Part shown: piece by piece, positions 1,148-25,538 of the stretch
Numbering within the stretch: the first letter of the stretch is position 1
Layout: each line of letters starts with the position of its first letter
Source: a virus
Taxonomy: Duplodnaviria; Caudoviricetes
Length of the DNA stretch: 53,064 bases
Strand: one strand, 5' to 3'
IMG/VR virus record: IMGVR_UViG_3300018036_000012
Location: 1 to 53,064 of that record
Translations under genes and position numbers: made by a program
The notes under the pieces: model-generated
Told to the model about the DNA's origin: nothing
The model's database searches: none
Seen by the model: only the letters and a program-made list of their open reading frames with translations

Positions 1148-1392
1148 TACCCGGGGAAGCACTAATATACGAAAGAGTAGACAGCGTTGTGTATGCCCGT
1201 TACCGTGACAAGCCTGAAATAGCTCGTTGGATCATTGGCGGCGATCCGGGTGCTGTTGCTAGAGCTAACGGTCGATTTATAAGCGACAATGAATTTCAAG
1301 ACATATGTAAATTAAGTTTAACAAATGTTACAATTAAAGAGCTTCTTGACCAGTTAATTGCAGCATACACTTTAGTGAGAGAAGACAAATGA
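1144..1392 (+). CDS. hypothetical phage protein
   Basis: 82-aa ORF with ATGA overlap on the upstream stop. Confidence 0.7.
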   Translation: MIPGEALIYERVDSVVYARYRDKPEIARWIIGGDPGAVARANGRFISDNEFQDICKLSLTNVTIKELLDQLIAAYTLVREDK

Positions 1393-1405
1393 AAGACTAT
1401 CAATT

Positions 1406-3654: not shown

Positions 3655-4004
3655 TACCATTTGAACTCAGTAACAATCTAAAACACACGTGGTTTTTTGA
3701 CTTAGATGGGACCATATTTAAACACAACGGTTTGTTCGACGATGGGCACGACACATTACTTCCTGGGGTTGTTGAATTGTGGGACATGATTCCAAGAGAT
3801 GATGTTATTATAATTACAACTGCTCGAAGCGATCCATGGAAAGATGCAACCTTACTTTTTCTCAAGGAAAGCGGAATACGATATGACCATATACTGTTTA
3901 ACTTGCCGATGGGGGAACGTATTGTGGTTAACGATGACAAGCCCGAAGGACTGTTAACAGCAATTGCATGGAACGTGAAAAGAAATCAAGGATATCGGGT
4001 ATGA
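3651..4004 (+). CDS. HAD-superfamily phosphatase (capless)
   Basis: FFDLDGTI motif I, TTAR motif II, VNDDKP motif IV. Confidence 0.85.
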   Translation: MIPFELSNNLKHTWFFDLDGTIFKHNGLFDDGHDTLLPGVVELWDMIPRDDVIIITTARSDPWKDATLLFLKESGIRYDHILFNLPMGERIVVNDDKPEGLLTAIAWNVKRNQGYRV

Positions 4005-4756
4005 GAAAAGTTTTAGTCACAGGGGGTTTTGATCCACTTCACAGCGGGCACATAGCATATTTTAAGGCAGCAAGAGAACTTGGCGACAAGCTTGTTGTAG
4101 GAGTTAATAGCGATGAATGGCTCGCACGTAAAAAAGGTCGCCCTTTTATGTCCTTTGAAGAGCGCTGTTCTATTATTAAAGAATTAGCATGTGTAGATGA
4201 AGTTATTGGGTTCAATGACAATGACAACACAGCATGCGGTGCAATTTTTCAATTGCTGTCTACAGCAAGTAGTCAAACAAAAATTGTATTTGCCAACGGC
4301 GGTGACAGAACCAAAGACAACATTCCAGAAATGGTTTATTCGGATGTAGAGTTTGTGTTCGGTGTCGGCGGCGAAGATAAAAAGAATAGCAGTAGTTGGA
4401 TACTCAAGGAGTGGAGTCAACCCACAACACAACGTGCGTGGGGAAGCTACACAGTATTGCACAATGGTCCGGGGTGGGCCGTTAAAGAACTTGCATTTGG
4501 AACTGAAACGCCGCTGAGTGATCAACGACATTTTATACGCAGTGAACATTGGCATGTAGTCGAAGGCGATATACGCATGGACTTGGAATTTGCCAACGGC
4601 GACAAGTCAAGTATAGTATATACATCAGGACAAAGTATTGATATTCCTGCACACACCTGGCACAAAGCAACTAATGTTGGCAATGTTACTGCTAAAGTAA
4701 TCGAAGTTTGGATGGGCACCAAACTCAGTGAAGATGATATTGAAAGAAGAGACTAA
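4001..4756 (+). CDS. cytidylyltransferase (RfaE-II/TagD-like) fused to a cupin (mannose-6-P isomerase-like) domain
   Basis: TGGFDPLHSGH, FANGGDR, KKNSSS; C-terminal RAWGSY...QRH...RSEHW...WH cupin; start moved to ATG 4001 (ATGA overlap). Confidence 0.9.
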   Translation: MRKVLVTGGFDPLHSGHIAYFKAARELGDKLVVGVNSDEWLARKKGRPFMSFEERCSIIKELACVDEVIGFNDNDNTACGAIFQLLSTASSQTKIVFANGGDRTKDNIPEMVYSDVEFVFGVGGEDKKNSSSWILKEWSQPTTQRAWGSYTVLHNGPGWAVKELAFGTETPLSDQRHFIRSEHWHVVEGDIRMDLEFANGDKSSIVYTSGQSIDIPAHTWHKATNVGNVTAKVIEVWMGTKLSEDDIERRD

Positions 4757-6420: not shown

Positions 6421-7352
6421 CGTGGGATTATGATGTTGTTGTGTACTTGAGCAGTCTTCCTAAGATTCGCAATCATAATATTAAAGTACAGATCATGCGA
6501 GCATTTGCAGACGGCGCAAGACAATGTGGTGCACGTGTGTTGGTTGATGAAAATTTGCGTGATCGGCAATTACATCGTGCAAAACTAGCAGTAATCATTG
6601 GGTGGGTTGGTATGAGCTATAGTGGTCCGCACATTTATCATAGAGAAGCTATTATTAATCATCAACGGGCAATTGGCGGCAGAGTTATGAGCATTGATGG
6701 AAGTTGCTTTAAGTTTCACAATGAACACGAAAACATGTGGTTGCGTTACAGTCTTGACAGTGTTTTTTACAACGAAGGTGAATATGCTAACAGTAACAGT
6801 AATCACACTCATTGGTATATGGTGCGTGATACGTTAGGACTCGAAATAAAGCCGTGGAAAAATTATGGTGATCATATTTTAATATGCTTGCAGCGTGATA
6901 ACGGCTGGAATGCCAAAGGATTTGACCAAATAGCTTGGCTACAAAAAACATTAAAAATTATACGCAGTCAAGTTAGCACTACTATTAAAATACGTCCGCA
7001 TCCTGGTACTATGGACAAACCATGGGCACAATTAATCGGCCAACATCAACACGTTGAAATTGTTGACAGTACCAAACGTACACTTCAACAAGATGTTAAG
7101 GGCGCAAAGGCCGCAGTATTTTACAACAGCTCGAGCAGTGTGTTAAGCGTATTAGAGGGTGTACCAACATTTGTCAGTGAAGAAAGTGCAGTAACGTGGG
7201 ACGTTGCAAATCATAATATTAGAGATATTTTTAGTCCTCAAATGCCCAACAGAGAACAGTGGTTGAATAATTTATGTCAAGCACATTGGACTATTACACA
7301 AAGCCGAAATGGTGAAATATATCGACACTTTGAACCGCACTTACCAGCCTAG
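6417..7352 (+). CDS. capsule polysaccharide biosynthesis-like (KpsC/KpsS-like) glycosyltransferase
   Basis: ILICLQ, IRPHP, FYNSSSSVLSVLEGVPTF, AHWT..E; start moved to ATG 6417. Confidence 0.75.
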   Translation: MTWDYDVVVYLSSLPKIRNHNIKVQIMRAFADGARQCGARVLVDENLRDRQLHRAKLAVIIGWVGMSYSGPHIYHREAIINHQRAIGGRVMSIDGSCFKFHNEHENMWLRYSLDSVFYNEGEYANSNSNHTHWYMVRDTLGLEIKPWKNYGDHILICLQRDNGWNAKGFDQIAWLQKTLKIIRSQVSTTIKIRPHPGTMDKPWAQLIGQHQHVEIVDSTKRTLQQDVKGAKAAVFYNSSSSVLSVLEGVPTFVSEESAVTWDVANHNIRDIFSPQMPNREQWLNNLCQAHWTITQSRNGEIYRHFEPHLPA

Positions 7353-7991
7353 TATACAGTCGTTTCTCACATTAGCTAGTTGAACCATTCCCCAACTTTT
7401 CAGTAATTCGACACTGCCATATTGTGTTTCTTCGGTTATGCCTGTGTCCTTGTGTAGTTTTTGTTCAACTACAATTACTGGACGATGTTTTTTAATAGTT
7501 TGTTTTGCGCCTTGTAGTATGGATAGTTCATAGCCTTCGCAATCAATTTTAATATAATCAACAGCATCAAATTCTAAACTATCTAACTTGTGCATGTCAA
7601 TGGATCCGTTGCCAATTGTATTGTTGTCAACATGACTGTGGCCGGTATTACCATTGGTAACAACCATATCGATGGTGGTATCTTCTGGTCCCAATGCATA
7701 AGGACGAATGTCTATATTATTGTTAGCAACATTTTTAATTAAACAATCACGAAAGTCGCTCACTGGTTCGAATGCAATAACTTGTGCAAAATGCAGTGCA
7801 AGATCTCTGCTCCACAAGCCAATGTTTGCTCCAATGTCAAGTGCAACACTTTTTTGCTTTACATATCGTAAACTTTTATTGCGTACTGGTTCTTGATACA
7901 CTGGTTCAAAACCTTTGCGTATATTTTTATCCAGCATTTCTACAAAGTGTGTGTCTTGGTCTGGGAACCACCAACCATGTTTTTCATACAT
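7341..7991 (-). CDS. FkbM-family SAM-dependent methyltransferase
   Basis: ALDIGANIG, AFEP, YIKIDCEGYELSILQGA. Confidence 0.92.
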   Translation of the reverse strand: MYEKHGWWFPDQDTHFVEMLDKNIRKGFEPVYQEPVRNKSLRYVKQKSVALDIGANIGLWSRDLALHFAQVIAFEPVSDFRDCLIKNVANNNIDIRPYALGPEDTTIDMVVTNGNTGHSHVDNNTIGNGSIDMHKLDSLEFDAVDYIKIDCEGYELSILQGAKQTIKKHRPVIVVEQKLHKDTGITEETQYGSVELLKSWGMVQLANVRNDCILGW

Positions 7992-8814
7992 TTAAAATCT
8001 TCTTCCAGTACGGGTGGTTGCTGTGCAGCCTAACTTCTTTTGCTTTACTGTGTCCACGTTGCTTGCGATCACCTTTCATGTGATCCAAATACATTCCTAG
8101 CTTGCTGTTAATAAACGGGTGTCCTGCTAGTCCCTTGGTGTCAGGCTCGGGATTGAGATCATAAAAGCTTGCACCTTTGTTATCGCGGTAATGTTTTCTC
8201 TGCACATCAAACAAGTAACTGTCATGCCATTCACGTTCATTAAACATGGTGTCGTTGATGTACATTCCGGCAAAGTCATTAACAAACTCAATGCCCAATG
8301 GGTGTCGACGATTGTACCCCACCCATCCGCATTCGCTGTGGTATCTATCAGTCCGTCCTAGGTGGGTTGCAATAAAATCATCTGGGCTAATGCTGTCTAA
8401 AAATTCAACACTTAATGGGCTATGAGTGTGGCTGTCTGCGTCTAACCAAATAATCCAATCGCTGTCAACAGTGTTTACTGCGTGGTGCACTGCAAACACT
8501 TTGTAACAAAATCTCACACCTTGCCATTTAAAATGTTTGCGTTCACTCCATTCTCCTTGGTTGTGAGGGCCCAATCCACCGTGTGCTTCTGGGTTGTTTT
8601 TGTGTCTTTCAACAAAACTTTTACATTCATTGCTAACACTAAGTAAATCAACACATCGTACATTCTTCTTGGTTATTCTCGGGGTGCAATTTTCTGTGTA
8701 AACAATCATGTCGACGCTGTCGGGCCAATGCTGCTCAAATGAATCAATCATCCGTTGGCCGTATAATTCCAAGCCCTCCTGATGAAATGTGGTAACTACT
8801 GTATAACGTTTCAT
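7984..8814 (-). CDS. GT-A fold glycosyltransferase (nucleotide-diphospho-sugar transferase-like)
   Basis: VVTTF, RFCYKVFA, IWLDAD, EWHDSYLFD, DHMKG; start moved to ATG 8814. Confidence 0.8.
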   Translation of the reverse strand: MKRYTVVTTFHQEGLELYGQRMIDSFEQHWPDSVDMIVYTENCTPRITKKNVRCVDLLSVSNECKSFVERHKNNPEAHGGLGPHNQGEWSERKHFKWQGVRFCYKVFAVHHAVNTVDSDWIIWLDADSHTHSPLSVEFLDSISPDDFIATHLGRTDRYHSECGWVGYNRRHPLGIEFVNDFAGMYINDTMFNEREWHDSYLFDVQRKHYRDNKGASFYDLNPEPDTKGLAGHPFINSKLGMYLDHMKGDRKQRGHSKAKEVRLHSNHPYWKKILNV

Positions 8815-8819
8815 ACGAG

Positions 8820-8827
8820 TATTTATA
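8820..8827 (-). promoter_or_regulatory. T4-type late promoter TATAAATA, 5 nt upstream of the ATG at 8814
   Basis: Exact TATAAATA on the minus strand in a 16-bp divergent gap. Confidence 0.75.
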
Positions 8828-8830
8828 ACC

Positions 8831-9697
8831 ATGATCATTAACATAGCATATTATCCGGAACAGTGTGCACTGAACAGCCCCACCGTGCTGGAAGCATTTC
8901 TTAATAGTTGCAGAGCAGCAGGTATAACGCCAGTTGAAAATAGTTTAGATTGTGATGCTGTTGTAATATGGAGTGTATTGTGGAACGGGCGCATGGCAAA
9001 GAACAAACAAGTATACGATCACTATCGCAGTCAAAATAAACCAGTGATTGTAATTGATGTTGGTGCACTTGATCGTGAAATAACTTGGAAAATAGCAGTT
9101 AACAATATCAATGCCAATGGCTATTACGGACATCAGCAAAATTTAGACTGGGATAGACCTGCTGCCCTGGGGTTAAAATTAGACAAGTTGCCACAGCAAA
9201 ATGATAGTATTTTGATAGCATTACAGCATCGTAAAAGTTTGCAATGGGAAAACATGCCTGATCTTCCAACTTGGACCAGGAAAACTATTGCCGATCTACG
9301 CAAGTATACAGACCGGCCAATAGTAGTTAGGCCGCATCCACGCAGTCCTGCATTTATCCCCCCACATCGATTTATGTTGGAAAACTTTGTTAATTGTACA
9401 ATGGAACAACCTATACGAGTGGACGACACTTATGACAAATACAACATTGACTACGGATATCATGCAGTAGTGAATCATTGTAGCGGCCCTGGTATTAGTG
9501 CAGCAATTGCCGGTGCAACTGTGCTAACTGATTCGAGCAGTCTTGCATATCCAGTTAGTACACATTTAGAAAACATCGAAACCCCTACATCAACAAATAG
9601 AGAACAGTGGTTTGTAGAAATATGCCACACTGAATACACTGTGCCAGAAATAGAACAAGGACTATGGCTAAAAAGATTAAGCGACTCACTGGAGTAA
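8831..9697 (+). CDS. capsule polysaccharide biosynthesis-like (KpsC/KpsS-like) glycosyltransferase
   Basis: ILIALQ, VRPHPR, VNHCSGPGISAAIAG, TEYTVPEI; paralogous to 6417-7352. Confidence 0.75.
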   Translation: MIINIAYYPEQCALNSPTVLEAFLNSCRAAGITPVENSLDCDAVVIWSVLWNGRMAKNKQVYDHYRSQNKPVIVIDVGALDREITWKIAVNNINANGYYGHQQNLDWDRPAALGLKLDKLPQQNDSILIALQHRKSLQWENMPDLPTWTRKTIADLRKYTDRPIVVRPHPRSPAFIPPHRFMLENFVNCTMEQPIRVDDTYDKYNIDYGYHAVVNHCSGPGISAAIAGATVLTDSSSLAYPVSTHLENIETPTSTNREQWFVEICHTEYTVPEIEQGLWLKRLSDSLE

Positions 9698-10419
9698 ATG
9701 ATGTGATAGATTGTGCATGCTTAATACATGACACACTGTATGACTGGACATATGTAGATAGACTTTATAATAGTCTATGTCGCAACCTAACACCCCAAGT
9801 TAGAATGCATGTGTACACAGAAAGCACACGTCACGTGCCTGCCCCTTACATCAAGCATGCGCTAGAAGAATGGGATGGCGTTAGGGGACCCAAGCGTAGT
9901 TGGTGGTACAAGATACAACTCTTTAACACACAAAACTGTTTAAAAGATCAAGTAAAAATGTTGTATTTTGATCTTGACACTGTCATTGTGGGGAATATCG
10001 ATTGGTTGTGGCAAGTTAACAAAGATAAATTTTGGGCAGCACGAGATTTTAAATATCTTATGAAAAGTAGTAAATGGGCAATTAATAGCAGTGTGATGTG
10101 GTTTGATATAAAGGACTATGCATATGTGTACAATGAATTTGATCCAAAATCGATCATTGATAATCCAAGATGTCCATGGCATGGAGATCAGGACTATATT
10201 TTTGAAAAAGTAAAAAACGATGTTGCGTTTTATAATTCTGACCAAATCCTCAGTTATCGATGGCAAGTAATGCACGGTGGATATGATTTTCGGTATAGAA
10301 AACACAAAGACCCTGGCGCCCCAAGTGTTGTGCCACCAGAAGCAAGTGTGCTGATATTTCACGGAAATCCCAAACCACACAGTGTTAAAGATAATATAAT
10401 ATCTCAGCATTGGTGCTAA
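9664..10419 (+). CDS. GT8-like glycosyltransferase
   Basis: WWYKIQLF, YFDLDTVI, NSSVM, GDQDYI, IFHGNPKPH. Confidence 0.85.
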   Translation: MAKKIKRLTGVNDVIDCACLIHDTLYDWTYVDRLYNSLCRNLTPQVRMHVYTESTRHVPAPYIKHALEEWDGVRGPKRSWWYKIQLFNTQNCLKDQVKMLYFDLDTVIVGNIDWLWQVNKDKFWAARDFKYLMKSSKWAINSSVMWFDIKDYAYVYNEFDPKSIIDNPRCPWHGDQDYIFEKVKNDVAFYNSDQILSYRWQVMHGGYDFRYRKHKDPGAPSVVPPEASVLIFHGNPKPHSVKDNIISQHWC

Positions 10420-13885: not shown

Positions 13886-13914
13886 TTGACTATATGGAAA
13901 AAATGTGGTACAAT
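13886..13914 (+). promoter_or_regulatory. sigma70-type promoter giving a probable leaderless uvsW mRNA
   Basis: TTGACT-17 nt-TACAAT with extended TG; ATG 5 nt after the -10; no SD. Confidence 0.75.
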
Positions 13915-13919
13915 ACATT

Positions 13920-15383
13920 ATGAGAACAGCAACACTAGTAATAAACGACGAAGTCAACTTAAAAATCACTGGCTTAGAACTGGATGTTCGCAAGAAGCTG
14001 GTTAACACTTTTAAGTATGATGTGCCACATGCAAGATATTTGCCGGCAGTGCGACTAGGCCGATGGGATGGCAAAGTTGCATACTTCCAAATGGGTGGCA
14101 GTACATATTTAAACTTGCTGCCCGACATTATTCCTATACTTGAAGACTTTAACTACGATATCGAAGTCCAAGACAATAGAGATTATCGAACCACGTTTAA
14201 GTTTGAGCCGGTTACTGAGGAATCTTATGCTGATATACTTTGGCCAAAGAATCATCCAGCAGTGGGGCAGCCAGTTAAGCTGCGTGATTACCAAGTTGAA
14301 ATTGTAAACAGTTTTTTAGAAAACCCACAATGTATACAAGAAATTGCAACAGGTGCAGGCAAGACTATTATGACTGCGGCATTAAGCGAACGTGTCGAAA
14401 CTTACGGACGCAGTATTATTATTGTGCCAAACAAAAGTCTGGTAACACAAACTGAAGCAGACTATATAAACATGCAATTAGATGTGGGTGTGTTTTATGG
14501 TGATAGAAAAGAATTTGGGCACAAGCACACAATCTGTACATGGCAAAGCTTGAATGTACTGCTAAAGAATACCAAGAATCATAAAGTGGATATTACAATA
14601 CACGAGTTCTTAGAGGACGTAGTAGCTGTTATTGTTGACGAAGTTCACATGGCAAAAGCAGATGCACTAAAAACACTGCTAACTGGTGTAATGAGTCAGA
14701 TACCACTGCGCTGGGGATTAACAGGCACAGTGCCCAAAGAACAATTTGAATTTCAAGCACTGCACGTTGGGCTGGGCCCAGTGATCAATCAACTTGCAGC
14801 CAGCGAGCTACAGGAAAAGGGCGTACTTGCAAACTGCCATGTGAATGTTGTGCAACTAGTAGACAATGCTGAGTTTACAAACTATCAAAGTGAACTAAAA
14901 TATCTGTTCGAAGACAAGGGCAGACTAGACACAATCTCTGGAGTAGTTTTAGAAGTAAACAAAACCGGTAATACTCTTGTGCTAGTAGACCGTATTAGTG
15001 CCGGACATGAACTACTGAGCAGACTAGGCGACAACGCTGTATTTGTTAGTGGCGCAACTAAATCCAAAGACCGACAAGATGAGTATGATGAAATAGCCAC
15101 ATCAACTGGTAAAATTATTATTGCAACATACGGTGTTGCGGCTGTGGGTATTAATTTACCACGTATTTTTAATCTTGTGTTACTCGAACCTGGTAAGAGT
15201 TTTGTGCGAGTTATACAAAGTATTGGCCGCGGTATTCGAAAAGCAGAAGATAAAGATCATGTGCAAATTTGGGACATAACATCAACTTGTAGATTTGCTA
15301 AAAGGCACTTAACCAAACGTAAACAATTTTACAAAGAAGCAAACTATCCATTTACTGTAGAAAAGTTGAAATGGGAGGAGTAA
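13920..15383 (+). CDS. uvsW: UvsW-like SF2 DNA helicase
   Basis: Q-motif LRDYQ, ATGAGKT, DEVH, GLTGT, QSIGRGIR; N-terminal WDGK motif. Confidence 0.92.
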   Translation: MRTATLVINDEVNLKITGLELDVRKKLVNTFKYDVPHARYLPAVRLGRWDGKVAYFQMGGSTYLNLLPDIIPILEDFNYDIEVQDNRDYRTTFKFEPVTEESYADILWPKNHPAVGQPVKLRDYQVEIVNSFLENPQCIQEIATGAGKTIMTAALSERVETYGRSIIIVPNKSLVTQTEADYINMQLDVGVFYGDRKEFGHKHTICTWQSLNVLLKNTKNHKVDITIHEFLEDVVAVIVDEVHMAKADALKTLLTGVMSQIPLRWGLTGTVPKEQFEFQALHVGLGPVINQLAASELQEKGVLANCHVNVVQLVDNAEFTNYQSELKYLFEDKGRLDTISGVVLEVNKTGNTLVLVDRISAGHELLSRLGDNAVFVSGATKSKDRQDEYDEIATSTGKIIIATYGVAAVGINLPRIFNLVLLEPGKSFVRVIQSIGRGIRKAEDKDHVQIWDITSTCRFAKRHLTKRKQFYKEANYPFTVEKLKWEE

Positions 15384-16122: not shown

Positions 16123-16623
16123 ATGAAAATATTAACACTAGATAATACTGTATTCGAGTTGGATGCATTGCCGGAAGAAATTGATGATATGCGTTTTGCA
16201 ATCTTTGATAATAGCGATCCAGCAAATCCGGATCATTTTTACATTCCGTTGATTTTTTTAGAAACGTTTAACAGTCCAGCTCTGGTTCTTAAAATTGGCA
16301 ATACTACTATGAAAATGCCCATAGATTGGCAAGTGTTGATTGGCGAACCAGATGTAGGCGATTTAGAAATGCTGGCACTTACTAGTATCAATGACAGAGG
16401 ATTCAAAGTCTTTGAATTTAACCCATTGACTAGTTTTGCTCCTACTTACTTGGACATTGAAATTGTTGATGTGTATCAAGATGTAACTTGGTATGTGCCG
16501 AAGTTGAAGAATGGACAGATGCTGGCAGTACCAATTGATGACAGCCCTAATCCCCGCTGTGTGTACTTTGTTAAAGATATCTCTAGGAACTGTGAAATTG
16601 TTGACATCACGCAGGCATTTTAA
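16123..16623 (+). CDS. beta-rich phage protein in the replication block (possible degenerate Hint fold)
   Basis: 166-aa ORF; pattern resemblance only. Confidence 0.7.
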   Translation: MKILTLDNTVFELDALPEEIDDMRFAIFDNSDPANPDHFYIPLIFLETFNSPALVLKIGNTTMKMPIDWQVLIGEPDVGDLEMLALTSINDRGFKVFEFNPLTSFAPTYLDIEIVDVYQDVTWYVPKLKNGQMLAVPIDDSPNPRCVYFVKDISRNCEIVDITQAF

Positions 16624-17072
16624 TGAGTGACAAGCTTAACATAGCAAACGAAATGCGTTGCTTTGATAGTAAAGACCGAGACTTTTACGACAGTCTCACT
16701 GATGAAGAGCGCAAAAAGTTTTCAAACTATCTGATGATACGCTGGGGAAGCAGTGTGCAGGGAAGCAGCGAGCTACAAGAATATTACTTGATATCCTGCA
16801 ACGAGCGTTTTAACAAGCATTTTTTTGACATCAACAAACATCCAAAACTACAATGGTTGTGTGCAACAAGTGTCAGTCCAGGTATGGGAAATCACAGACA
16901 CCAATGGATTGCGCCAAAGAAAAAAGACAAAGGCAACAGCATAGCAAAGAAAACGTTGATGGAGTTGTATCCTACAATGAAGGCAGATGAAATTGACTTA
17001 CTAAGTAAGTTAATAACCAACAAAGAACTGAAGGAATTCATGCGTGACAGCGGCACCGCAGACAAAAAGTGA
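16623..17072 (+). CDS. putative clamp-loader small subunit (gp62-like)
   Basis: FSNYLMIRW...N......HPKLQW....HQWI pattern like T4 gp62; replication context. Confidence 0.55.
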   Translation: MSDKLNIANEMRCFDSKDRDFYDSLTDEERKKFSNYLMIRWGSSVQGSSELQEYYLISCNERFNKHFFDINKHPKLQWLCATSVSPGMGNHRHQWIAPKKKDKGNSIAKKTLMELYPTMKADEIDLLSKLITNKELKEFMRDSGTADKK

Positions 17073-17745
17073 AGTCTATGTTTGCAAATATTGCAAGCGT
17101 GAGTTCAAACGAGAAAACAGTTTGTCTGTTCATTTGTGTGAACCAAAAAAGAGATTTCAAGAAGAAAAAGAAGTAGGTGTACAAATAGGTTTACAAGCCT
17201 ATTTGCGTTTCTATGAAACAACACAGGGCAGTGCTAAAATAAAAACATTTGCAGATTTTGCTAAAAGTCCGTACTATAAAGCGTTTGTAACATGGGGAAG
17301 ACATTGCCAAGCTATTAATGCTATAAACGTGCCCAAGTTTTTAAACTGGTTGCTCTCGAATAATAAAAAGATAGATCACTGGTGTAAAGAAGCATTGTAT
17401 GATGAATACTTGCAACAATACATAAAACGTGAGGCACTACAAGATGCACTTGAGCGTGGTATTAAGTACAGCATGAAATGGAGTGACAAAACTGGCAATC
17501 CGTCACACGACTTTTTAAGATATGGAAACGAAAACACTGTAGCATTTGCAATATCAACTGGACGCATTAGTCCATGGTTGTTGTTTAACAGCAAGTCTGG
17601 ACAAGATTATCTTGAGAACATGAATGGTGATCAAATTAAAATAGTGTGGCCTTGGATTGATCCAGACTTTTGGCAGAAAAAGTTTAAAGATTATCCAGAT
17701 GACAAAGCGTATGCAGAAGAAATACTTAAACGTGCAGGCTGGTAA
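17044..17745 (+). CDS. zinc-finger-containing phage protein
   Basis: N-terminal CKYC...F...SLSVHLC; C-terminal GRISPW. Confidence 0.7.
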   Translation: MTAAPQTKSEVYVCKYCKREFKRENSLSVHLCEPKKRFQEEKEVGVQIGLQAYLRFYETTQGSAKIKTFADFAKSPYYKAFVTWGRHCQAINAINVPKFLNWLLSNNKKIDHWCKEALYDEYLQQYIKREALQDALERGIKYSMKWSDKTGNPSHDFLRYGNENTVAFAISTGRISPWLLFNSKSGQDYLENMNGDQIKIVWPWIDPDFWQKKFKDYPDDKAYAEEILKRAGW

Positions 17746-17748
17746 AGG

Positions 17749-17777
17749 TTGACAAGTTGTATTATGTGTGTTATAAG
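17749..17777 (+). promoter_or_regulatory. sigma70-type promoter
   Basis: TTGACA-17 nt-TATAAG with extended TG. Confidence 0.65.
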
Positions 17778-17800
17778 TAAAGCAACAAAAGGAGATACCA

Positions 17801-18055
17801 ATGGGACTAACTCGACCAAAGATTTCACAAGTTAAATCGAAACCCAAGCACAAAGACAAAAAGTTTTATCTTAGTGTGATAAAAGTAGCTGCATATCTAG
17901 GTGCATGTTATGCACTGTACAACGGTGGTGTTGTGCTTGGCGAAGCAATCTATGTTGCAGAGCTGCCAGCAGTTAATCTTGGGCAATGGTTTACATATGC
18001 AGCAGGGTTGTTTTTGGTGGCAAATATTACTTCGTTTATTCGCGACTTAGTATGA
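17801..18055 (+). CDS. small 2-TM membrane protein
   Basis: AAGGAG RBS; basic N-terminus and two hydrophobic segments. Confidence 0.7.
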   Translation: MGLTRPKISQVKSKPKHKDKKFYLSVIKVAAYLGACYALYNGGVVLGEAIYVAELPAVNLGQWFTYAAGLFLVANITSFIRDLV

Positions 18056-18615
18056 GTGCAGACGTCGACATTGACTTTGCTGACAGGCAAGCAATCATTG
18101 ATTTAATTCAATGTACTTCTGCTAGGCAAAACGAACAAGGTCGACGTCATAATTCTGGTGTATATGTTACGCCTGTGCCGTATGATGCAAAAAACAATTG
18201 TGCTAGCATAACATACGACGAAGCTGAAAGTCGTGGGTACTTTAAACTGGACTTTCTCAACATGAGTGTGTACACATCTATACGAGATCAGCAGCACTAT
18301 GACGAATTGTTAGCAAAAGAACCCCAATGGGACTTGATGTGGACTAACAGCGATCTTGCACAAAAACTAGTGCATGTAGGCAACTACGCACAGCTACTCA
18401 ATGAGATGCGCCCAGACAGCATACAGCGTATGGCTGCATTTATATCTGTTATTCGACCCGGTAAAGCACACTTGAAAAACAAGCCATGGAATGAGGTGTT
18501 TGCTAGTGTATGGGATGGTGATAGTAGTGATGGGTTTGTGTTTAAGAAGTCGCATGCTGTTAGCTATGCAACACTAGTGGCATTGCATCTTAATCTACTC
18601 TGCGAACAAGAGTAA
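18052..18615 (+). CDS. minimal DNA polymerase III alpha (DnaE)-like catalytic core, 187 aa
   Basis: DVDIDF, RHNSGVYV, YFKLDFLN, IRPG and FKKSHAVSYA match family-C polymerase motifs; start moved to ATG 18052. Confidence 0.8.
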   Translation: MSADVDIDFADRQAIIDLIQCTSARQNEQGRRHNSGVYVTPVPYDAKNNCASITYDEAESRGYFKLDFLNMSVYTSIRDQQHYDELLAKEPQWDLMWTNSDLAQKLVHVGNYAQLLNEMRPDSIQRMAAFISVIRPGKAHLKNKPWNEVFASVWDGDSSDGFVFKKSHAVSYATLVALHLNLLCEQE

Positions 18616-18967
18616 TACTACGGCGTTTAATTTTCTTACGTGACAGTTCTGCTAAACTTGTTGCAGGTCCGAGTAATATATCCAGGTCCTTATTGATAAA
18701 TGTTCTGAGATAAGGCCTAAATTGTTCCCAATCATTTTTGAGAAAAATGTTGATGGGTATACTGCGATTGCTTTCCCACCACCACTGTGATGCTAGTTCG
18801 ATAAAATCTCGTTTTTGTTGATCGTTTACTATACTACCAAAATCGTATATAGTTGTAACTTGATCATCGCGATTTTGAACCACACCGACATATTCGTTTT
18901 TTGCATATGTGCAAAACGTAATAAATGGATATCGCTCGGCGATCTTTTGGAAGAGTTCTACGCCCAT
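18590..18967 (-). CDS. hypothetical phage protein
   Basis: 125-aa ORF, WWWESNRSIPINIFL; divergent from the late gene at 18995. Confidence 0.75.
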   Translation of the reverse strand: MGVELFQKIAERYPFITFCTYAKNEYVGVVQNRDDQVTTIYDFGSIVNDQQKRDFIELASQWWWESNRSIPINIFLKNDWEQFRPYLRTFINKDLDILLGPATSLAELSRKKIKRRSITLVRRVD

Positions 18968-18972
18968 AAATA
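18965..18972 (+). promoter_or_regulatory. late promoter (caTAAATA)
   Basis: TAAATA core ~22 nt upstream of ATG 18995. Confidence 0.65.
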
Positions 18973-18994
18973 CCTTGTATTGGAGTTATAATTA

Positions 18995-19990
18995 ATGTAT
19001 TCTACCACTGTGTATTTATATCAACAAAAGCAACAGGTGTTATTAGTCGACACCAGTGGTGCGTATTTTCAAAGGAGATGGCAACCGGTGTATGCAAAGA
19101 AACTTAAAGTGAACCTAGGAGTTGATAATGTTATTCTTTTTGAATTTATCAACCAAGATCAAAAGCCTGTAAATATTTCAGGTAGTACGATCACATTCAG
19201 AATGATGAGCACCGACGGCGAGGAACTACTGGCTGTCAAGGACTTGGACATATTGTCAGCAGCATATGGTCGTGCTAAAGTTGTTTTATCGCATGAGTTG
19301 TTGAGCAGTATTGAAGCTCAGACTGCCAGTTGGAGTTTGGAAAGAGCAAGTGGCGAATTGTTTGAAGCAGTTTTCACTGATGCATATTCTAGCAGCAGAG
19401 GGCAAGTGGATATTGTTGACAGTGTTTATCCAAACTATGTAGAAAGTGCAATACTTGAAGTACCTTCGCCGTTGAAGCAAAATACACCAGCTGCAAACAA
19501 TGACAGAAATTATAGCAGTATAGCATACACCGCAGACAATACGTTAACAACTTTTCAACTTGACTTTGACAACTTTACTGGTAATGTAAAAGCACAAGGC
19601 AGTGATTCACAACTCGGTCCATGGTATGATATCGGATCACAAACAGTGTACAGTAACCAAGACACACGTGATTACATCAACGTTGATGGTACACACAATT
19701 GGGTGCGTTTTGAAATTAACCAATACGGGTATAGTGCAAGTGCAGTTGCGGAAGTTGCTGACGGGCGTGTTAGTAACATCTCATTAAATGGCGGCGGTGT
19801 TGAATGGTATGGCACAGGCAATCCTAATGTTGACATCGAAGGCGGACGAGGAACAGGCGCAACAGCTACAGCCACAGTCACAGCTAATGCAGTATCGAGT
19901 ATTTCACTAGTTACCACCGGGCAAGGATATATAACAGTACCAGAAGTAAAATTAAACAGCGGAAAAATTACTCAAATACTCTATAGATAA
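18995..19990 (+). CDS. putative virion structural protein (baseplate/tail-associated)
   Basis: Late promoter, GGAG RBS; C-terminal G.G.GATATA.V....V.SI....G.GY...P.V module typical of phage structural proteins. Confidence 0.65.
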   Translation: MYSTTVYLYQQKQQVLLVDTSGAYFQRRWQPVYAKKLKVNLGVDNVILFEFINQDQKPVNISGSTITFRMMSTDGEELLAVKDLDILSAAYGRAKVVLSHELLSSIEAQTASWSLERASGELFEAVFTDAYSSSRGQVDIVDSVYPNYVESAILEVPSPLKQNTPAANNDRNYSSIAYTADNTLTTFQLDFDNFTGNVKAQGSDSQLGPWYDIGSQTVYSNQDTRDYINVDGTHNWVRFEINQYGYSASAVAEVADGRVSNISLNGGGVEWYGTGNPNVDIEGGRGTGATATATVTANAVSSISLVTTGQGYITVPEVKLNSGKITQILYR

Positions 19991-20000
19991 AAGGTACTAC

Positions 20001-20744
20001 ATGGCTATTAAACGAATTATAGCATTTGGTGATAGTTGGACTTATGGCGACGAACTATTGGATCCGCAATTCAGTGCACATCCAGATAAAGGAATACTTG
20101 ATCATTATACTGAAAATACAAAATATCGGTTAGATCATTGTTACGCTGGGCTTGTTGCCGACCATTATAGTGTTGAATTAGAAAACCTAGCATTTCCCGG
20201 TAGCAGCCTCGAAAGCATGCGTTGGACAGTGGATTGGTTGTTAAACAACAACGGCCAAGATCTACAGGATTCATTGTGGCTAGTGGGTCTAACTGACAGC
20301 AGTAGACAGAGTTGGTTTAATCCGTTGCACGAAGTAGGCAGGAAAGATCCGCCATGGAACCGGCACATGCACGGAACTTGGTTAACACAACCCAATCCTG
20401 ACATTGATGACAACTGGTTTAAACTACAAAAAATGTGGCTAGGAATGAGCTATCATCGAGAATGGAGCGAATACAATTATCGACAAACAATTAATTTGTT
20501 TGACTATGCTGCTACCAAGGCTGGCGCAAAATTATTACAGTTCAGTGTGCTGGGAAATAATTGGAAAACACAATCACCTACGTTACTTTACCCTGGAACG
20601 AATTGGCGCAACATCCTTCAAGCTAAACAAAAAGAGTTATCGATTAAGCTTTTTGCTGCAAAAGGACATCCGAATGAAAAAGGCCATGAAATTATATCAA
20701 AACACTTGATTGAACACATAAAGTGTGCTAATATAATAGCATAA
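20001..20744 (+). CDS. SGNH/GDSL hydrolase-like protein
   Basis: IAFGDSWTYG block I, NLAFPGSS block II, GHPNEKGH block V. Confidence 0.75.
   Translation: MAIKRIIAFGDSWTYGDELLDPQFSAHPDKGILDHYTENTKYRLDHCYAGLVADHYSVELENLAFPGSSLESMRWTVDWLLNNNGQDLQDSLWLVGLTDSSRQSWFNPLHEVGRKDPPWNRHMHGTWLTQPNPDIDDNWFKLQKMWLGMSYHREWSEYNYRQTINLFDYAATKAGAKLLQFSVLGNNWKTQSPTLLYPGTNWRNILQAKQKELSIKLFAAKGHPNEKGHEIISKHLIEHIKCANIIA
20710..20737 (+). promoter_or_regulatory. sigma70-type promoter giving a probable leaderless primase mRNA
   Basis: TTGAAC-16 nt-TATAAT; ATG 6 nt after the -10. Confidence 0.55.
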
Positions 20745-21721
20745 TGTTAGACATAATCAGTTATCTGCCCACAAAGCATAAAGTGACTAGTTCGGGATGG
20801 ATTAGTTTTAATGCTCCGTGTTGCATTCACAATGGTGAATCAACGGATCGACGAAGTCGTGGCGGACTACGGCAACAGGATGATGAATGGAGTTATCATT
20901 GCTTTAACTGCGGATTTACTGCTAGTTTTACTCCAGGCAGGCCAGTGAGTTATAAAGCTAGACGATTTCTAGAATGGCTTGGTGTAGACAGCGTCGATGT
21001 TGAACGTCTTAATTTAGAAAGTCTTAAACGCAAGAGTTTGCTGGACTTAACAGCAGAGCGCAATCAAATACGCCATGTGGATGTAGCGTTTAACGAAACT
21101 GAAGTTCCAGAGGGTGTTGAAGTAATCGATCCCCGAAATGTAGATCATCAACGATATTTAGACTATCTAGCAAGTAGGAGAATAGTGTTAGAATATCCGT
21201 TTTTAGTTGACAAGAAACGTGGGGTACGAGATAGGATAGTAGTCCCATACACATACAAAAATAGAATTGTTGGGCATACGTCAAGGTACTTGGACAATCG
21301 TACACCCAAGTTTATTAACAGTCAGCAACCTGGGTATGTGTTTGGGTATGACTTGCAAAAAGCAGACTGGACTAGTGCAATTGTAACTGAGGGAATTTTT
21401 GATGCATTGAGTATAAGTGGCTTGGCAGTTATGCATGATACTATTAGTCCACAGCAAGCACAACTATTAAAACAACTAAAGCGTAGGATTATTGTTGTTC
21501 CTGATCAAGACAAAGCAGGGTTAAGTATTATAGATGCAGCCGTTGAATACAAATTTGAAGTAAGCATACCAGACTGGCCGGATGATGTTAAAGACGTAAA
21601 TGATGCAGTCGTGAAATACGGAGTAGTAAATACACTATTGCAAATACACAAACATGCTGAATCAAGCAAGATTAAAATTGAAATGTTTAAGAAAAGACTG
21701 CAAAGGAAACTAAATGAGTAA
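20744..21721 (+). CDS. DNA primase (zinc finger + TOPRIM; gp61/DnaG-like)
   Basis: PCC...YHCFNC zinc finger; VTEGIFDA, VPDQDKAG, KDVNDA. Confidence 0.9.
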   Translation: MLDIISYLPTKHKVTSSGWISFNAPCCIHNGESTDRRSRGGLRQQDDEWSYHCFNCGFTASFTPGRPVSYKARRFLEWLGVDSVDVERLNLESLKRKSLLDLTAERNQIRHVDVAFNETEVPEGVEVIDPRNVDHQRYLDYLASRRIVLEYPFLVDKKRGVRDRIVVPYTYKNRIVGHTSRYLDNRTPKFINSQQPGYVFGYDLQKADWTSAIVTEGIFDALSISGLAVMHDTISPQQAQLLKQLKRRIIVVPDQDKAGLSIIDAAVEYKFEVSIPDWPDDVKDVNDAVVKYGVVNTLLQIHKHAESSKIKIEMFKKRLQRKLNE

Positions 21722-22409
21722 GCTTTATGTGTTTGGTGACAGCTACACTACACCCAACTATTGTGTTGCCCAACAAGACAGTTGGTGGGGCCTTTGTGCA
21801 GGGTTGTTGCCAGTTGATGAAATACACAACCATAGTTGGCCCGGAAATAACATCGAAAGTATTGCTCATACAATTCTACATACCGATATTGATCGTGATG
21901 ATTTTGTTATTGTTGCAGTTCCCCCAATGGGACGAATTACATACTTTGCAGGAGAAGCTGCTAAATTACAGCATTATACAGTTTACAATCATGACATGCA
22001 ACAACAGTACACACAGCCTGAGTTGTGTCACAAAGGCTTGACGCAAATACCAACGCACGAGACTGAAAAAGAAAATATTGATAGATGGGACAACAGTTGG
22101 GGCGAAGCTACTGCGTTAAGAGAATTATTGTTATTAGATGTTCTATTAGATAAAGTTATGTTTTGTGTTATGTCTACTCCTTTTATGGAAAAGTCATCCT
22201 GGCCCACAATAAAAACTCTGATCAAAAAGACAAAAAAACCGCAATTTCAGACTTGCAAAAACACATACTACAGTGTAAACTTACATATAAATAAACCAGT
22301 AGATTATGATACATATGGCTGGTTTGGGCATCATGGTGCCATCGGCAACAAGCATTATTTTAATATTACAGCAAAACCTACAATGCAAAAACTAGGATGG
22401 ATAGTATGA
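21714..22409 (+). CDS. SGNH hydrolase-like protein
   Basis: LYVFGDSYT, NHSWPGNN, GHHGAIGN. Confidence 0.65.
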   Translation: MSKLYVFGDSYTTPNYCVAQQDSWWGLCAGLLPVDEIHNHSWPGNNIESIAHTILHTDIDRDDFVIVAVPPMGRITYFAGEAAKLQHYTVYNHDMQQQYTQPELCHKGLTQIPTHETEKENIDRWDNSWGEATALRELLLLDVLLDKVMFCVMSTPFMEKSSWPTIKTLIKKTKKPQFQTCKNTYYSVNLHINKPVDYDTYGWFGHHGAIGNKHYFNITAKPTMQKLGWIV

Positions 22410-23062
22410 AGTTCTATTTCAATGGATGTAGTATCACCCAAGGTGCTGGCTTTACAAACGAAAAAGCCGATGCTAGAATATATCCTAACTTGATTGCAAC
22501 TGATCATATCAATGATGCTAGCGGTGGCGCAAGTAACTTGAAAATATTTTTACACACAAGCAAAGCAATTGTTGACAACTTAGCTGATATATATATTGTA
22601 CAATGGAGTTCTGTCCATCGGCATTGGGTTTACCCAGCACCAGACCGAGGTATCTATTTTGGATCGACTCAAGATGCAATATCAACTAATGACAAGTTTA
22701 TTGTCCAATATCAGTTGCTCAATCACGATTATGGTAATATAATGCAACTAATAGACTTTTGCCGTATATTACAAGATCAAGCAAGCAGTCACAATGTAAA
22801 ACTGTTGTTTGTTAACGGATTGATTAGCTGGAGCGACAGCATAGACTGGATGAATAAACTAGTGCAGGATGCTAGCAGTGACCATGATAGATTTGTTGAA
22901 CAAATGCAAAACAACATGGAATTGGTAGATTGGGATTTGTGGATCGATCCTTGGGATAGCATGTACAAAAACAAACTTGACGTAGCCGAGGACGGATCAC
23001 ATCCAGGGCCGCTAACACATAAACACGTAGCTGACCAAATAAGGAATAAATTAAAAGTATGA
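22406..23062 (+). CDS. SGNH hydrolase-like protein
   Basis: FNGCSITQG, NDASGGASN, DGSHPGPLTH; start moved to ATG 22406. Confidence 0.7.
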   Translation: MKFYFNGCSITQGAGFTNEKADARIYPNLIATDHINDASGGASNLKIFLHTSKAIVDNLADIYIVQWSSVHRHWVYPAPDRGIYFGSTQDAISTNDKFIVQYQLLNHDYGNIMQLIDFCRILQDQASSHNVKLLFVNGLISWSDSIDWMNKLVQDASSDHDRFVEQMQNNMELVDWDLWIDPWDSMYKNKLDVAEDGSHPGPLTHKHVADQIRNKLKV

Positions 23063-24465
23063 CTGAATATACATATGAAGTACAAAAATTATTCTTAGAA
23101 ATGGCAATGCAAGATGCACAGAGTTACTTGCGTGTGCAAAACATTTTCAACAAAGAAAATTTTGATAAAGATCTGCGTGAAGCTGCTGAGTTTATCTATG
23201 ACCATGCAAATGAGCATAAAACACTTCCGGACCGTATGCAAGTAAAGGCAGTTACTGGAGTTGATTTACAGGAGATACCCGATCTCAACAGTGGGCACAC
23301 TGATTGGTTCTTAGGCGAGTTTGAAAGCTTTACTCGCAGACAGGAACTTGAACGTGCAATTTTACAAAGTGCAGATTTATTGGAAAAAGGAGAGTACTCG
23401 CCTGTTGAAAAACTAATCAAAGATGCTGTGCAAATAAGTTTAACAAAAGACTTGGGAACAAATTACTTTGAAGATCCCAAAGCCAGACTATCGGCACTTA
23501 AAGACAACAATGGGCAGAACAGTACAGGCTGGAAAAACTTGGATAGACTGTTGTATGGTGGCTTTAATAGAGGCGAACTACAAATTTTTGCAGGTGGATC
23601 AGGTTCGGGCAAGAGTTTGTTTATGCAAAACTTGGCAGTTAATTGGATGGAAGCTGGGCTTAATGGGACTTATATTACATTGGAGCTCAGTGAGGGCTTG
23701 ACAGCCATGCGACTTGATAGTATGTTAACTGGAACACCTAGCAAACAGTTGTTTAAAGATATTGACACTGTTGAAATGAAAGTCAAAATGGCAGGCAAAA
23801 AAGCAGGTAATCTGCAGATTAAATACATGCCAGCACAAAGTACTGTTAACGATATTCGTGCATTTGTAAAAGAACTTAGTATTAAACAAGGCAAAGACAT
23901 TGATTTTATGCTAGTTGACTACTTGGACTTGCTTATGCCAGTGAGTGCAAAAGTTAGTCCAAATGATTTGTTTGTGAAAGACAAGTATGTAAGTGAAGAA
24001 CTGCGCAACTTGGCACGTGAATTAAACATATTATTTGTTACAGCAAGTCAGTTGAACAGAAGTGCTGTCGAGGAAATTGAATTTGATCATTCGCATATCT
24101 CGGGCGGTATTAGTAAGATCAACACAGCAGACAACGTGTTTGGTATCTTTACAAGTAGAGCAATGAAAGAACGTGGGCGCTATCAAATACAAGCAATGAA
24201 AACTAGAAGCAGTAGTGGTGTGGGACAAAAGATTGACCTGGAGTTCGACATGGAAAGCTTGAGGATCACTGGACTTGATGATGATGAAGCAGCATCAGGT
24301 GCAGGAACACAAGGCAGCACTATACTAGCAGGCATTAAAGCAAAAAGTCAAATGGTACAAAAAGACGTAACTGACAGCATGCCGCAAGATGCTCCTAAGG
24401 TAGTAGCTGATGTACAGAGCAGCAAGCTCAAACAAATGCTGGCAGGAATTAAACAAAACGGATGA
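23059..24465 (+). CDS. dnaB: replicative DnaB-family helicase (T4 gp41-like)
   Basis: GGSGSGKS, ITLELSE, LVDYLDL, TASQLNR, KTR. Confidence 0.93.
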   Translation: MTEYTYEVQKLFLEMAMQDAQSYLRVQNIFNKENFDKDLREAAEFIYDHANEHKTLPDRMQVKAVTGVDLQEIPDLNSGHTDWFLGEFESFTRRQELERAILQSADLLEKGEYSPVEKLIKDAVQISLTKDLGTNYFEDPKARLSALKDNNGQNSTGWKNLDRLLYGGFNRGELQIFAGGSGSGKSLFMQNLAVNWMEAGLNGTYITLELSEGLTAMRLDSMLTGTPSKQLFKDIDTVEMKVKMAGKKAGNLQIKYMPAQSTVNDIRAFVKELSIKQGKDIDFMLVDYLDLLMPVSAKVSPNDLFVKDKYVSEELRNLARELNILFVTASQLNRSAVEEIEFDHSHISGGISKINTADNVFGIFTSRAMKERGRYQIQAMKTRSSSGVGQKIDLEFDMESLRITGLDDDEAASGAGTQGSTILAGIKAKSQMVQKDVTDSMPQDAPKVVADVQSSKLKQMLAGIKQNG

Positions 24466-25538
24466 CCCAATTTTGTAGACACCTGAGCAATGCACTTGCA
24501 ATCAACAACCTTGGCGGAGACTTTACAGTCAGTCCGTGTTGTTATTTTTCGCACAATGAAAGTGTACACGATCTTTCAACTTTGCCTCAATTGAGAGAAA
24601 AGTGGAACTCGGGTGATTTAACAAAAACTTGCAGTCTTTGTATACACCAAGAACAACAAAAACAAATCAGCTACAGGCAAGCCGGTTTTGATCTAATGAC
24701 AGACAGTGATGGATTGCAGATGCTCACTATTGCAGTTACCAAGCAATGCAATCTTGCTTGTGCTAGCTGCGATAGCAATAGCAGCAGTTTCTGGCAAGAC
24801 GAAAATATTCGCAATGGGGTAGAGAACACTAAAGTGTTGGATCGAAAAGGTACAAACACTGACGACAAACTAGTAAGTTGGTTCGAAACACTGGATACTA
24901 CAAATCTTAGGTATATCAAGTTCGGTGGTGGTGAACCATTAATGAATAATACTCATTTAAGAATACTAGAACTTGTCAATAACCCACAAGATATTACAAT
25001 ACAATATACCAGCAATTACACATTGTATCCGTCGGATAAAACACTAGCACAGTGGCAACGTTTTAAACTGGTTAAGTGGATAGGTAGCATCGACGGAGTA
25101 GGCAAACAGTTTGAATATTTGCGTTGGCCAGCAAAATTTTCCACTGTTGAAAAGTTGGTCAATAAAGCTATAGAGGAATGTCCAGGAAATGTTATGTTTG
25201 GTATAGAGCATACATTAAATCCTTTCAACGTCTTTTACTATGATAAAATTAAAGAGTGGTATAAGGACGCAATGCTGACAAATAGATTTGGTGATCCTAG
25301 CGATTTTAATATACATCCGTGTCACGGTACTATAGGAATTGAAAAAACACCAACTGCACTGCGAAAAAAGATAAAAGAAAGGTACGGAAGCGAGCATGAA
25401 ATATCCATCATGTTAAATCAGTATCCGTACACTGAACACAAATCAGCAATTAACTGGGCAAACACATTAGATAAATGGCGGAATCTGCAATGGGATACAA
25501 CCTTCCATGAAATTACCAAATATTTTAATAGCCACTGA
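24462..25538 (+). CDS. radical SAM protein with an N-terminal twitch/SPASM-like Cys domain
   Basis: CNLACASC (CxxxCxxC), FGGGEPL, SIDG; N-terminal C...PCC...CSLC. Confidence 0.88.
   Translation: MTQFCRHLSNALAINNLGGDFTVSPCCYFSHNESVHDLSTLPQLREKWNSGDLTKTCSLCIHQEQQKQISYRQAGFDLMTDSDGLQMLTIAVTKQCNLACASCDSNSSSFWQDENIRNGVENTKVLDRKGTNTDDKLVSWFETLDTTNLRYIKFGGGEPLMNNTHLRILELVNNPQDITIQYTSNYTLYPSDKTLAQWQRFKLVKWIGSIDGVGKQFEYLRWPAKFSTVEKLVNKAIEECPGNVMFGIEHTLNPFNVFYYDKIKEWYKDAMLTNRFGDPSDFNIHPCHGTIGIEKTPTALRKKIKERYGSEHEISIMLNQYPYTEHKSAINWANTLDKWRNLQWDTTFHEITKYFNSH

Follow-up and report, generated by a model that had tools for sequence, protein, structure and literature searches.

The closest described relatives of the gene analysed here are the split minimal DNA polymerase III (Pol III) alpha enzymes of the 'group 2.2' jumbo phages, which Iyer, Anantharaman, Krishnan, Burroughs and Aravind described from sequence in 2021 (Viruses 13:63, PMC7824862). 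These authors remark that the enzyme may cooperate with the family B polymerase (PolB) in the synthesis of one strand or in repair. Two genome papers, in the parts of them drawn on here, record only the N-terminal unit (N-unit) of such an enzyme, as a 'truncated' Pol III alpha of 172 amino acids (aa) in phage CBB (PMC5259590) and as gp316 in Atu_ph07 (PMC6102473). In the literature covered, with most subscription journals outside the search, we found no biochemical or structural study of a split minimal Pol III alpha, and none of the terms 'polymerase III', 'DnaE', 'family B' and 'PolB' appears in a 2026 review of jumbo phages. Here we analyse a DNA stretch of 53,064 nucleotides that constitutes the whole IMG/VR viral record IMGVR_UViG_3300018036_000012 (hereafter the window; the contig is rated 15% complete), and in particular the open reading frame (ORF) of 187 codons that opens with the ATG at position 18052.

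This ORF very probably encodes the C-terminal unit (C-unit) of a split minimal C-family Pol III alpha of the T4-related group 2.2 jumbo phages. Everything reported here on homology, fold and conservation, on the split and the fused form, and on synteny and predicted binding comes from computation alone. The window gene shares with the enzyme of Iyer et al. a full-length match to PHROG 11778, the motifs, the size and a T4-like replication neighbourhood; a distant N-unit and an accompanying family B polymerase are seen in its relatives, and no substantial difference emerged. Among cultured isolates, the C-unit is 43% identical to that of PA5oct, 38-41% to those of GAP32, CBB, RaK2 and 121Q, and 40% to that of Sinorhizobium phage Phosso. 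The window gene is an additional, uncultured member of an already described family and not a discovery; what we did not meet in the portions of Iyer et al. (PMC7824862) used here are a fused 375-aa form, per-residue conservation counts and a predicted interface between the units.

Three other groups of C-family polymerases invite comparison. With cellular DnaE and PolC (E. coli 2hnh, Taq 3e0d, M. tuberculosis 7pu7) the protein shares a Pol-beta-like palm, the DxD...D triad, a lysine equivalent to K553, collinear RPG and (F)xKSHxxxYA fingers motifs and a fold similarity of Z 6.0-9.6, but it is devoid of PHP, thumb, beta-clamp motif, HhH, OB and tau-binding parts, its palm is divided over two polypeptides, and it is very probably not the main polymerase of its genome. 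In cyanobacteria, dnaE also exists as two pieces far apart on the genome, which are of full size and are spliced into one chain by split inteins. The phage enzyme resembles this arrangement in having a C-family polymerase gene in two distant pieces; it differs in that the split falls inside the catalytic palm and no intein is matched, and assembly would have to be non-covalent. Finally, group 3.2 jumbo phages such as Bacillus phage G carry, according to Iyer et al. (PMC7824862), a host-like full-length DnaE with an N-terminal PHP domain as their replicase. Both are phage-borne C-family polymerases, but the window-type enzyme is minimal, split and accompanies PolB.

The ORF translates without an internal stop, and its frame is already open from an ATG at 17986 (209 aa). 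Three grounds favour the ATG at 18052 as the start: it shares bases with the TGA of the preceding 84-aa ORF (ATGA), homologues open with MSAD(I/V)DID, and the PHROG 11778 match begins at residue 3. Orthologues of the C-unit are inconsistently annotated, as 'putative membrane protein' or 'hypothetical protein' in several isolate genomes, such as the GenBank records of GAP32, CBB and Muenster, and as 'DNA polymerase' in RefSeq and other records.

Profile searches place the protein with the alpha subunits of Pol III. PHROG 11778, 'DNA polymerase', is matched with E 5.9e-56, residues 3-186 lying on positions 7-194 of its 197. A profile from an alignment of 77 full-length, diverse family members, 28-56% identical to the window protein (alignment A1), retrieved nine distinct PDB sequences at E<=10, and all nine are DNA polymerase III alpha (best 5fku_A, E 1.8e-5). 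Its positions 53-139 align to E. coli DnaE 538-641, which puts K65 and D67 on K553 and D555 and R135-P136-G137 on R639-P640-G641, while positions 150-178 align to 739-768, with FKKSHA on F756-N757-K758-S759-H760-S761; these stretches are collinear with E. coli DnaE. The DxDxD stretch lies on E. coli MPDFDVDF (399-406) in a sub-threshold part of the profile alignment, and we place it there because of the collinearity and because the structural alignment starts at E. coli 399. Of the E. coli catalytic triad, which we take to be D401, D403 and D555, the last is thus matched by D67 within a significant stretch, and the sub-threshold placement of DxD on 401/403 is consistent with the structural alignment. 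A single-sequence phmmer search of PDB with the C-unit gave no match, and the NCBIfam DnaE models scored weakly (E 0.024-0.14; 9.7-12.6 bits against cut-offs of 434-1260). The likeness of the C-unit to DnaE exceeds chance.

The first-pass annotation of this DNA, made without database searches, had reported a 187-aa ORF with five DnaE motifs in the correct order and all three catalytic aspartates retained, and the translation and motif positions agree with it (Table 1). D4, D6, K65, D67, R135 and P136 are invariant in alignment A1 (77/77), D8, H33 and H168 are each present in 76 of the 77 sequences, and G36 is present in 75. K165 is found in 71 (with R in 5 more) and K166 in 60 (with R in 15 more). 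HNSGVYV belongs to a strand at residues 32-38 in the AlphaFold2 model, and no residue-level DnaE counterpart was assigned to it. The GS loop is absent from the window protein, whose chain opens MSADVDIDF; the GS loop, DxD and third acidic residue of a single-chain Pol-beta core are hence not together on one polypeptide.

The predicted fold leads to the same family. The AlphaFold2 model of the C-unit, computed with alignment A1, has a mean predicted local distance difference test (pLDDT) of 95.9 and a predicted template modelling score of 0.89. In a Foldseek search of PDB the top 16 rows were all C-family polymerase entries (2 at E<=0.001), and with VIA-align the top 13 rows were C-family polymerases at Z 6.0-9.6, followed by an unrelated protein at Z 3.1. 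The comparison with DnaE that had been proposed as a check gave its best result for Taq Pol III alpha (3e0d_A, 460-836), with Z 9.6 and a root-mean-square deviation of 3.5 Å over 183 of 187 residues; for E. coli 2hnh, 399-779, Z was 8.0. The 187 residues stand for this 381-residue E. coli span, about 190 fewer. In profile coordinates, some 90 residues are missing between the DxD strand and E. coli 538, the stretch in which, by domain limits reportedly set by Lamers et al. in 2006, the thumb lies, and some 87 residues of the fingers are missing between 641 and 739. Nothing is equivalent to DnaE before 399 or after 779. The PHP, thumb, clamp-binding, HhH and OB parts are all missing, in agreement with the earlier reading of a protein with no PHP, clamp-binding or OB domains.

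The first half of the palm was sought in relatives. Three large related contigs carry C-units 61-66% identical to that of the window, and all three have a separate ORF that aligns to positions 19-95 of PF07733 (E 2.9e-8 to 6.6e-7). This N-unit has 174 aa in the 345-kb relative that is 99% complete, where it contains GVGRGSS near its end, terminates ...EFLR and belongs to PHROG 11127 (E 7.5e-38). The distance between the N-unit and C-unit genes is about 95, 99 and 108 kb in these contigs, 44 kb in PA5oct and 34 kb in GAP32. Of the records in the phage collection, 97 contain a C-unit and 100 an N-unit, and the tallies by genus are almost alike. The window, a 15%-complete fragment, yielded no N-unit (PF07733, none in six frames; tblastn, best E 0.045; profile, best E 0.51), and, with 18 kb of sequence ahead of the gene and 34 kb behind it, this absence fits the distances in relatives. 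The first-pass annotation had considered the gene as possibly 'one part of a split polymerase' and had called for complementary fragments and a separate replicase; both turned up in relatives, but neither in the window, and the idea of a split polymerase is the one that the N-unit, the fused forms and the complex prediction bear out.

Rare fused forms connect the two units directly. Three proteins (P0228, P0273 and P0274) of 375-376 aa, from two sources, are mutually 78-81% identical and share a conserved junction, with PHROG 11127 matched at 8-180 and PHROG 11778 at 190-374. The N-terminal part of P0228 (375 aa) matches PF07733 with E 4.8e-16 and contains the GVGRGSS loop. Such proteins evidently provide a 'Rosetta stone' link between N-unit and C-unit, and as single chains they would be a convenient construct for biochemistry. 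In IMG/VR, a scan with P0228 gave 18 pattern matches and 0 relatives, and a scan with the three-sequence alignment gave 224 pattern matches and 2 relatives, both of them split N-units (residues 14-180). A word search for longer forms with the C-unit (P0001) found 0 fused proteins among 213 candidates, which is weak evidence. In a quick maximum-likelihood tree of 92 C-unit sequences, the fused forms make up one clade (support of 100 in the SH-like approximate likelihood ratio test, SH-aLRT) nested in a clade of 12 rows (96), the remaining 9 of which are split. From this position among split forms, the fusion seems to have occurred once and late in a split family.

We predicted a complex of the N-unit and C-unit of the 99%-complete relative in three runs, with a separate alignment for each chain. 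The interface score ipSAE was 0.91 (median of three runs), against 0.00 for the best of 3 controls; in calibration, 58 of 80 solved complexes attain this mark, as do 2 of 110 mismatched pairs, counts that are only roughly valid with custom alignments. At least 97% of contacts are shared between the runs, with a partner pLDDT of at least 91. In the predicted interface, N-unit residues 135-148 (WGVGRGSS loop) lie against C-unit residues 2-10 (DxDxD strand). Co-distribution, fused forms and complex prediction together indicate that the two units belong together.

From these results we propose an enzyme whose active site would lie at the subunit interface. The C-unit would supply the three metal-binding aspartates (D4, D6 and D67), K65 and two pieces of the fingers (the RPG and FKKSHA helices), and the N-unit of ~174 aa would contribute the opening half of the Pol-beta-like palm with its nucleotide-binding GRGS loop, and end just before the DxD strand. 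The two chains would associate non-covalently and with no intein involved, through packing of the GRGS loop of one on the DxD strand of the other. Such a heterodimer would be a small nucleotidyl-transferase devoid of proofreading and clamp-binding parts, and would most likely be a templated DNA polymerase. If two chains of ~180 aa are active together, they would constitute by far the smallest C-family polymerase core, with a catalytic site shared by two proteins, and, as Iyer et al. (PMC7824862) argue, a natural minimal model for the working and evolution of DnaE-type polymerases.

The task of such an enzyme would be an accessory one at the fork or in repair, for example primer extension or gap filling, rather than that of the main replicase. 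An accessory role is suggested because the gene has a fixed place between UvsW and the primase and helicase and because a family B replicase co-occurs. A PolB frame of 886 aa is present in the 99%-complete relative (DNA_pol_B, E 4.3e-33) and one of 889 aa in a second relative. Phage MIJ3, described as closely related to PA5oct, is reported to carry a split family B polymerase with an intein (PMC6892783). In the window we found no PolA, PolB, PF07733 or DnaQ-type exonuclease (PF00929), an absence that is uninformative for the phage at 15% completeness. With a separate family B polymerase in relatives, the earlier view that this protein is not a processive replicase stands, and the C-unit is evidently not one. 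For annotation, such a gene is best labelled as half of a two-part accessory polymerase, and not as a replicase, a pseudogene or a membrane protein.

Several points weigh against this reading. The thumb, proofreading, clamp-binding and OB parts are absent, so templated DNA synthesis is not assured, and we found in the literature no activity measurement for any family member. Pfam returned 0 families at E<=10 for the C-unit, and the PF07733 gathering score was not reached. The best PDB match of the N-unit profile, E. coli DnaE 351-392, lies immediately ahead of residue 399, where the C-unit begins, with an E of only 0.4, a pointer and not a proof. Both the partner gene and PolB are assigned to the window phage from relatives whose C-units are 61-66% identical to its own, and in the third large relative (61% complete) no PolB was found. 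The tree of C-units comes from a quick search and was rooted at its midpoint. Lastly, because both parts form one chain in solved DnaE structures, the complex score may reflect model memory of full-length DnaE, and so likeness rather than binding.

The alternative that survives best accepts the two-chain enzyme and takes it for a non-templated Pol-beta transferase that tails DNA or RNA ends or makes a small nucleotide product, for instance in counter-defence. The loss of thumb, clamp-binding, HhH and OB parts would suit such an enzyme, and a MenT-type toxin appears among the weak Foldseek rows (probability 0.10). According to Iyer et al. (PMC7824862), the Pol-beta fold palm is common to many non-polymerase transferases, and jumbo phages carry several such transferases for RNA repair. 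However, all strong structural matches of the C-unit are polymerases, its gene has a constant position within a block of replication genes, with UvsW on one side and primase/helicase on the other, and the fingers motifs RPG and FKKSHA are kept and nearly invariant. In DnaE, these two motifs lie beside the incoming nucleotide and the template. We consider a non-templated transferase improbable.

A second alternative, close to the 'miniature DnaE' of the first-pass annotation, is a self-sufficient 187-aa polymerase in which a single chain binds both nucleotide and metal. One chain does hold three aspartates, K65 and the fingers motifs, and it folds confidently alone in the AlphaFold2 model. Yet this chain has the DxD strand as its first element and lacks that half of the palm which carries the GS loop and is needed to hold the triphosphate in the Pol-beta superfamily. 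That half is encoded by a co-distributed separate gene, fused forms put it directly in front of the C-unit, and the predicted interface buries C-unit residues 2-10. With the GRGS nucleotide-binding half on another gene, the self-contained enzyme has to be given up as a description of this gene, and we rate it as very improbable.

The protein could also be a decaying remnant of a host-derived full-length dnaE with no function of its own; it is far shorter than cellular DnaE, and in the CBB genome paper the N-unit is termed 'truncated' (PMC5259590). The family data speak against decay. A word-indexed search gave at least 7986 matches at E<=0.001 among the 8000 candidates scored, with lengths of 151-216 aa, mostly 184-216 aa, among the 120 matches listed, and an exhaustive HMMER search gave 335 clusters (50% identity, E<=0.001) of constant length; the split minimal Pol III alpha family is very abundant in environmental jumbo phages. 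The ratio of nonsynonymous to synonymous substitutions (dN/dS, Nei-Gojobori), another check that had been proposed, is 0.077 against a 97%-identical orthologue (dS 0.18) and 0.096 against an 82%-identical one (dS 1.25), the two closest unsaturated orthologues. Six more orthologue pairs gave 0.08-0.15 at dS >1.6, and seven pairs were saturated. The first-pass annotation had stated that unconserved aspartates in homologues or a decayed dnaE in the flanks would tell against it. Across the 77 aligned sequences, some only 28% identical to the window protein, the catalytic residues are instead invariant, and on either side of the gene lie unrelated conserved genes. PF07733 has no match in the six window frames, and tblastn of the fused protein finds only the C-unit ORF. 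A remnant can hardly be credited. Although dnaE is a classic host of natural split inteins and the two genes here lie far apart, a split intein that joins the halves covalently as in cyanobacteria is scarcely believable, for the N-unit ends ...EFLR, the C-unit starts MSAD-DxD, the fused form leaves only about nine linker residues, there is no room at the junction for intein pieces of roughly 100 and 35 aa, and Pfam and PHROG searches gave no Hint or intein family match.

Table 1. Features of the window that bear on the putative C-unit and its surroundings; loci are counted over the synteny set described in the text.
Feature	Position	Strand	Remarks
Very probable C-terminal (metal- and template-binding) unit of split minimal DNA polymerase III alpha	18052..18615	+	187 aa
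DVDIDF, residues 4-9	18061..18078	+	putative catalytic aspartates D4, D6 (two of three), plus D8
HNSGVYV, residues 33-39	18148..18168	+	strand after short hairpin standing where cellular DnaE has thumb
KLDFL, residues 65-69	18244..18258	+	putative third catalytic aspartate D67, plus K65
IRPG, residues 134-137	18451..18462	+	fingers motif
FKKSHA, residues 164-169	18541..18558	+	fingers helix motif
UvsW-like DEAD/ResIII helicase	13905..15383	+	39/39 loci
PHROG 11279, conserved neighbour	16123..16623	+	53/55 loci
PHROG 11758, conserved neighbour	16623..17072	+	61/61 loci
PHROG 11058, CCHC zinc finger then all-helical domain, 233 aa	17044..17745	+	71/71 loci, same strand
84-aa hydrophobic ORF, stop overlaps polymerase start (ATGA)	17801..18055	+	8/77 loci
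PHROG 11637, convergent, overlaps polymerase 3' end by 26 bases	18590..18967	-	69/69 loci, always opposite strand
gp61-like Toprim DNA primase	20744..21721	+	30/30 loci
DnaB/gp41-like replicative helicase	23059..24465	+	17/17 loci
Further window genes: class I ribonucleotide reductase; tail and virion proteins; ClpX-like ATPase			PHROG/Pfam annotation

The gene content of the window is that of a T4-related jumbo phage, and the sequencing runs that contain the stretch are labelled salt marsh or marine metagenome. We compared the surroundings of the gene over 82 related loci (80 from IMG/VR, PA5oct and RaK2), counting each neighbour only over loci with enough flank. The gene order is fixed: UvsW, PHROG 11279, PHROG 11758, PHROG 11058, the C-unit, the convergent PHROG 11637, a virion protein (55/56 loci), primase and DnaB-like helicase. 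The 84-aa ORF directly upstream is variable and not a conserved partner. The first-pass annotation had placed the gene near clamp-loader, primase and helicase genes; primase as well as DnaB-like and UvsW-like helicases are indeed there, but no clamp loader could be confirmed. At 45259-46470 lies a ClpX-like AAA+ gene, which may be what was taken for one, and a P-loop protein at 12090-12905 matches only an unnamed PHROG.

Four conserved neighbours of unknown function could not be linked to DnaE or to a known fold by tblastn of the fused protein or by PDB, Atlas, Foldseek, VIA and NCBIfam searches. That they are hidden pieces of DnaE was considered and rejected, as tblastn of the fused protein matched only the C-unit ORF. 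In the PHROG 11058 protein C14, C17, H30 and C32 are invariant, and zinc fingers are matched in PDB; for its helical domain (AlphaFold2 pLDDT 84.4), Foldseek gave nothing at E<=0.001 and a wide VIA search gave a best Z of 4.5. HMG-box chains at Z 3.0-4.0 over residues 42-93 are a lead only. A DNA-binding or helicase-loader-like role for this protein is a weak lead from such models. PHROG 11279 has no PDB sequence match below E 0.7 and only unnamed viral clusters in the Atlas, PHROG 11758 has no Pfam or NCBIfam match, and NCBIfam searches with eight neighbours returned only one weak adenylate-kinase row. PHROGs 11279, 11758 and 11637 are candidate partners of the minimal polymerase or of the primase and helicase.

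This setting allows a more specific version of the accessory polymerase, which we put forward tentatively, as unlikely. The two-chain enzyme might be a dedicated primer-extension polymerase that is coupled to the neighbouring primase and helicase and works beside PolB, its active site being formed only when the subunits meet and its missing DNA-handling parts being supplied by conserved neighbours of unknown function. Candidates for these parts would be the zinc-finger protein at 17044-17745 and PHROGs 11279, 11758 and 11637. Eukaryotic Pol alpha, and Bacillus subtilis DnaE beside PolC, offer analogies. The subunits, separately encoded and perhaps separately timed, would give the phage a switch for a second polymerase through their assembly. 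This proposal goes beyond the remark of Iyer et al. on one-strand synthesis or repair.

RNA libraries also contain the locus. Contigs from four runs of three studies cover the C-unit gene: in library X7 one contig (17695-18619) spans the 84-aa ORF and the C-unit gene with zero differences, X17 covers 17647-18603 and X16 covers 17647-19000. Such cover means presence in RNA libraries only, since DNA carry-over is possible, and uncovered X18 bins are uninformative. The contigs start at 17647-17695 and end at 18603-18619, bracketing the 84-aa ORF and the C-unit and ending where the convergent gene overlaps; this is a weak hint that 17647-18619 is a transcript unit.

Further observations concern other parts of the window. 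Three plus-strand ORFs, at 20001-20744, 21714-22409 and 22397-23062, are inserted among the virion gene, primase and helicase, and recur in 18/45, 4/20 and 0/19 related loci, respectively; the first and last have weak matches to GDSL lipase/acylhydrolase, below the Pfam cut-off. A radical-SAM-like protein (24462-25538, plus strand; PHROG 14086, E 1.7e-11) directly follows the replicative helicase. The ClpX-like ATPase at 45259-46470 (plus strand) carries a ClpX zinc finger (Pfam AAA_2 and zf-C4_ClpX), and on the same strand lie an Hsp20-type small heat-shock protein (49036-49479) and a small ORF (49556-49861) matching a PHROG named 'ATP-dependent protease'; this gene content suggests a phage protein-quality-control set. 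Finally, a sugar-nucleotide and glycosylation cluster at 356-4756 and 7341-10419, with UDP-glucose-dehydrogenase-like, heptose isomerase-like and kinase/adenylyltransferase-like ORFs, a methyltransferase and a glycosyltransferase, could serve the modification of the virion, DNA or host surface.

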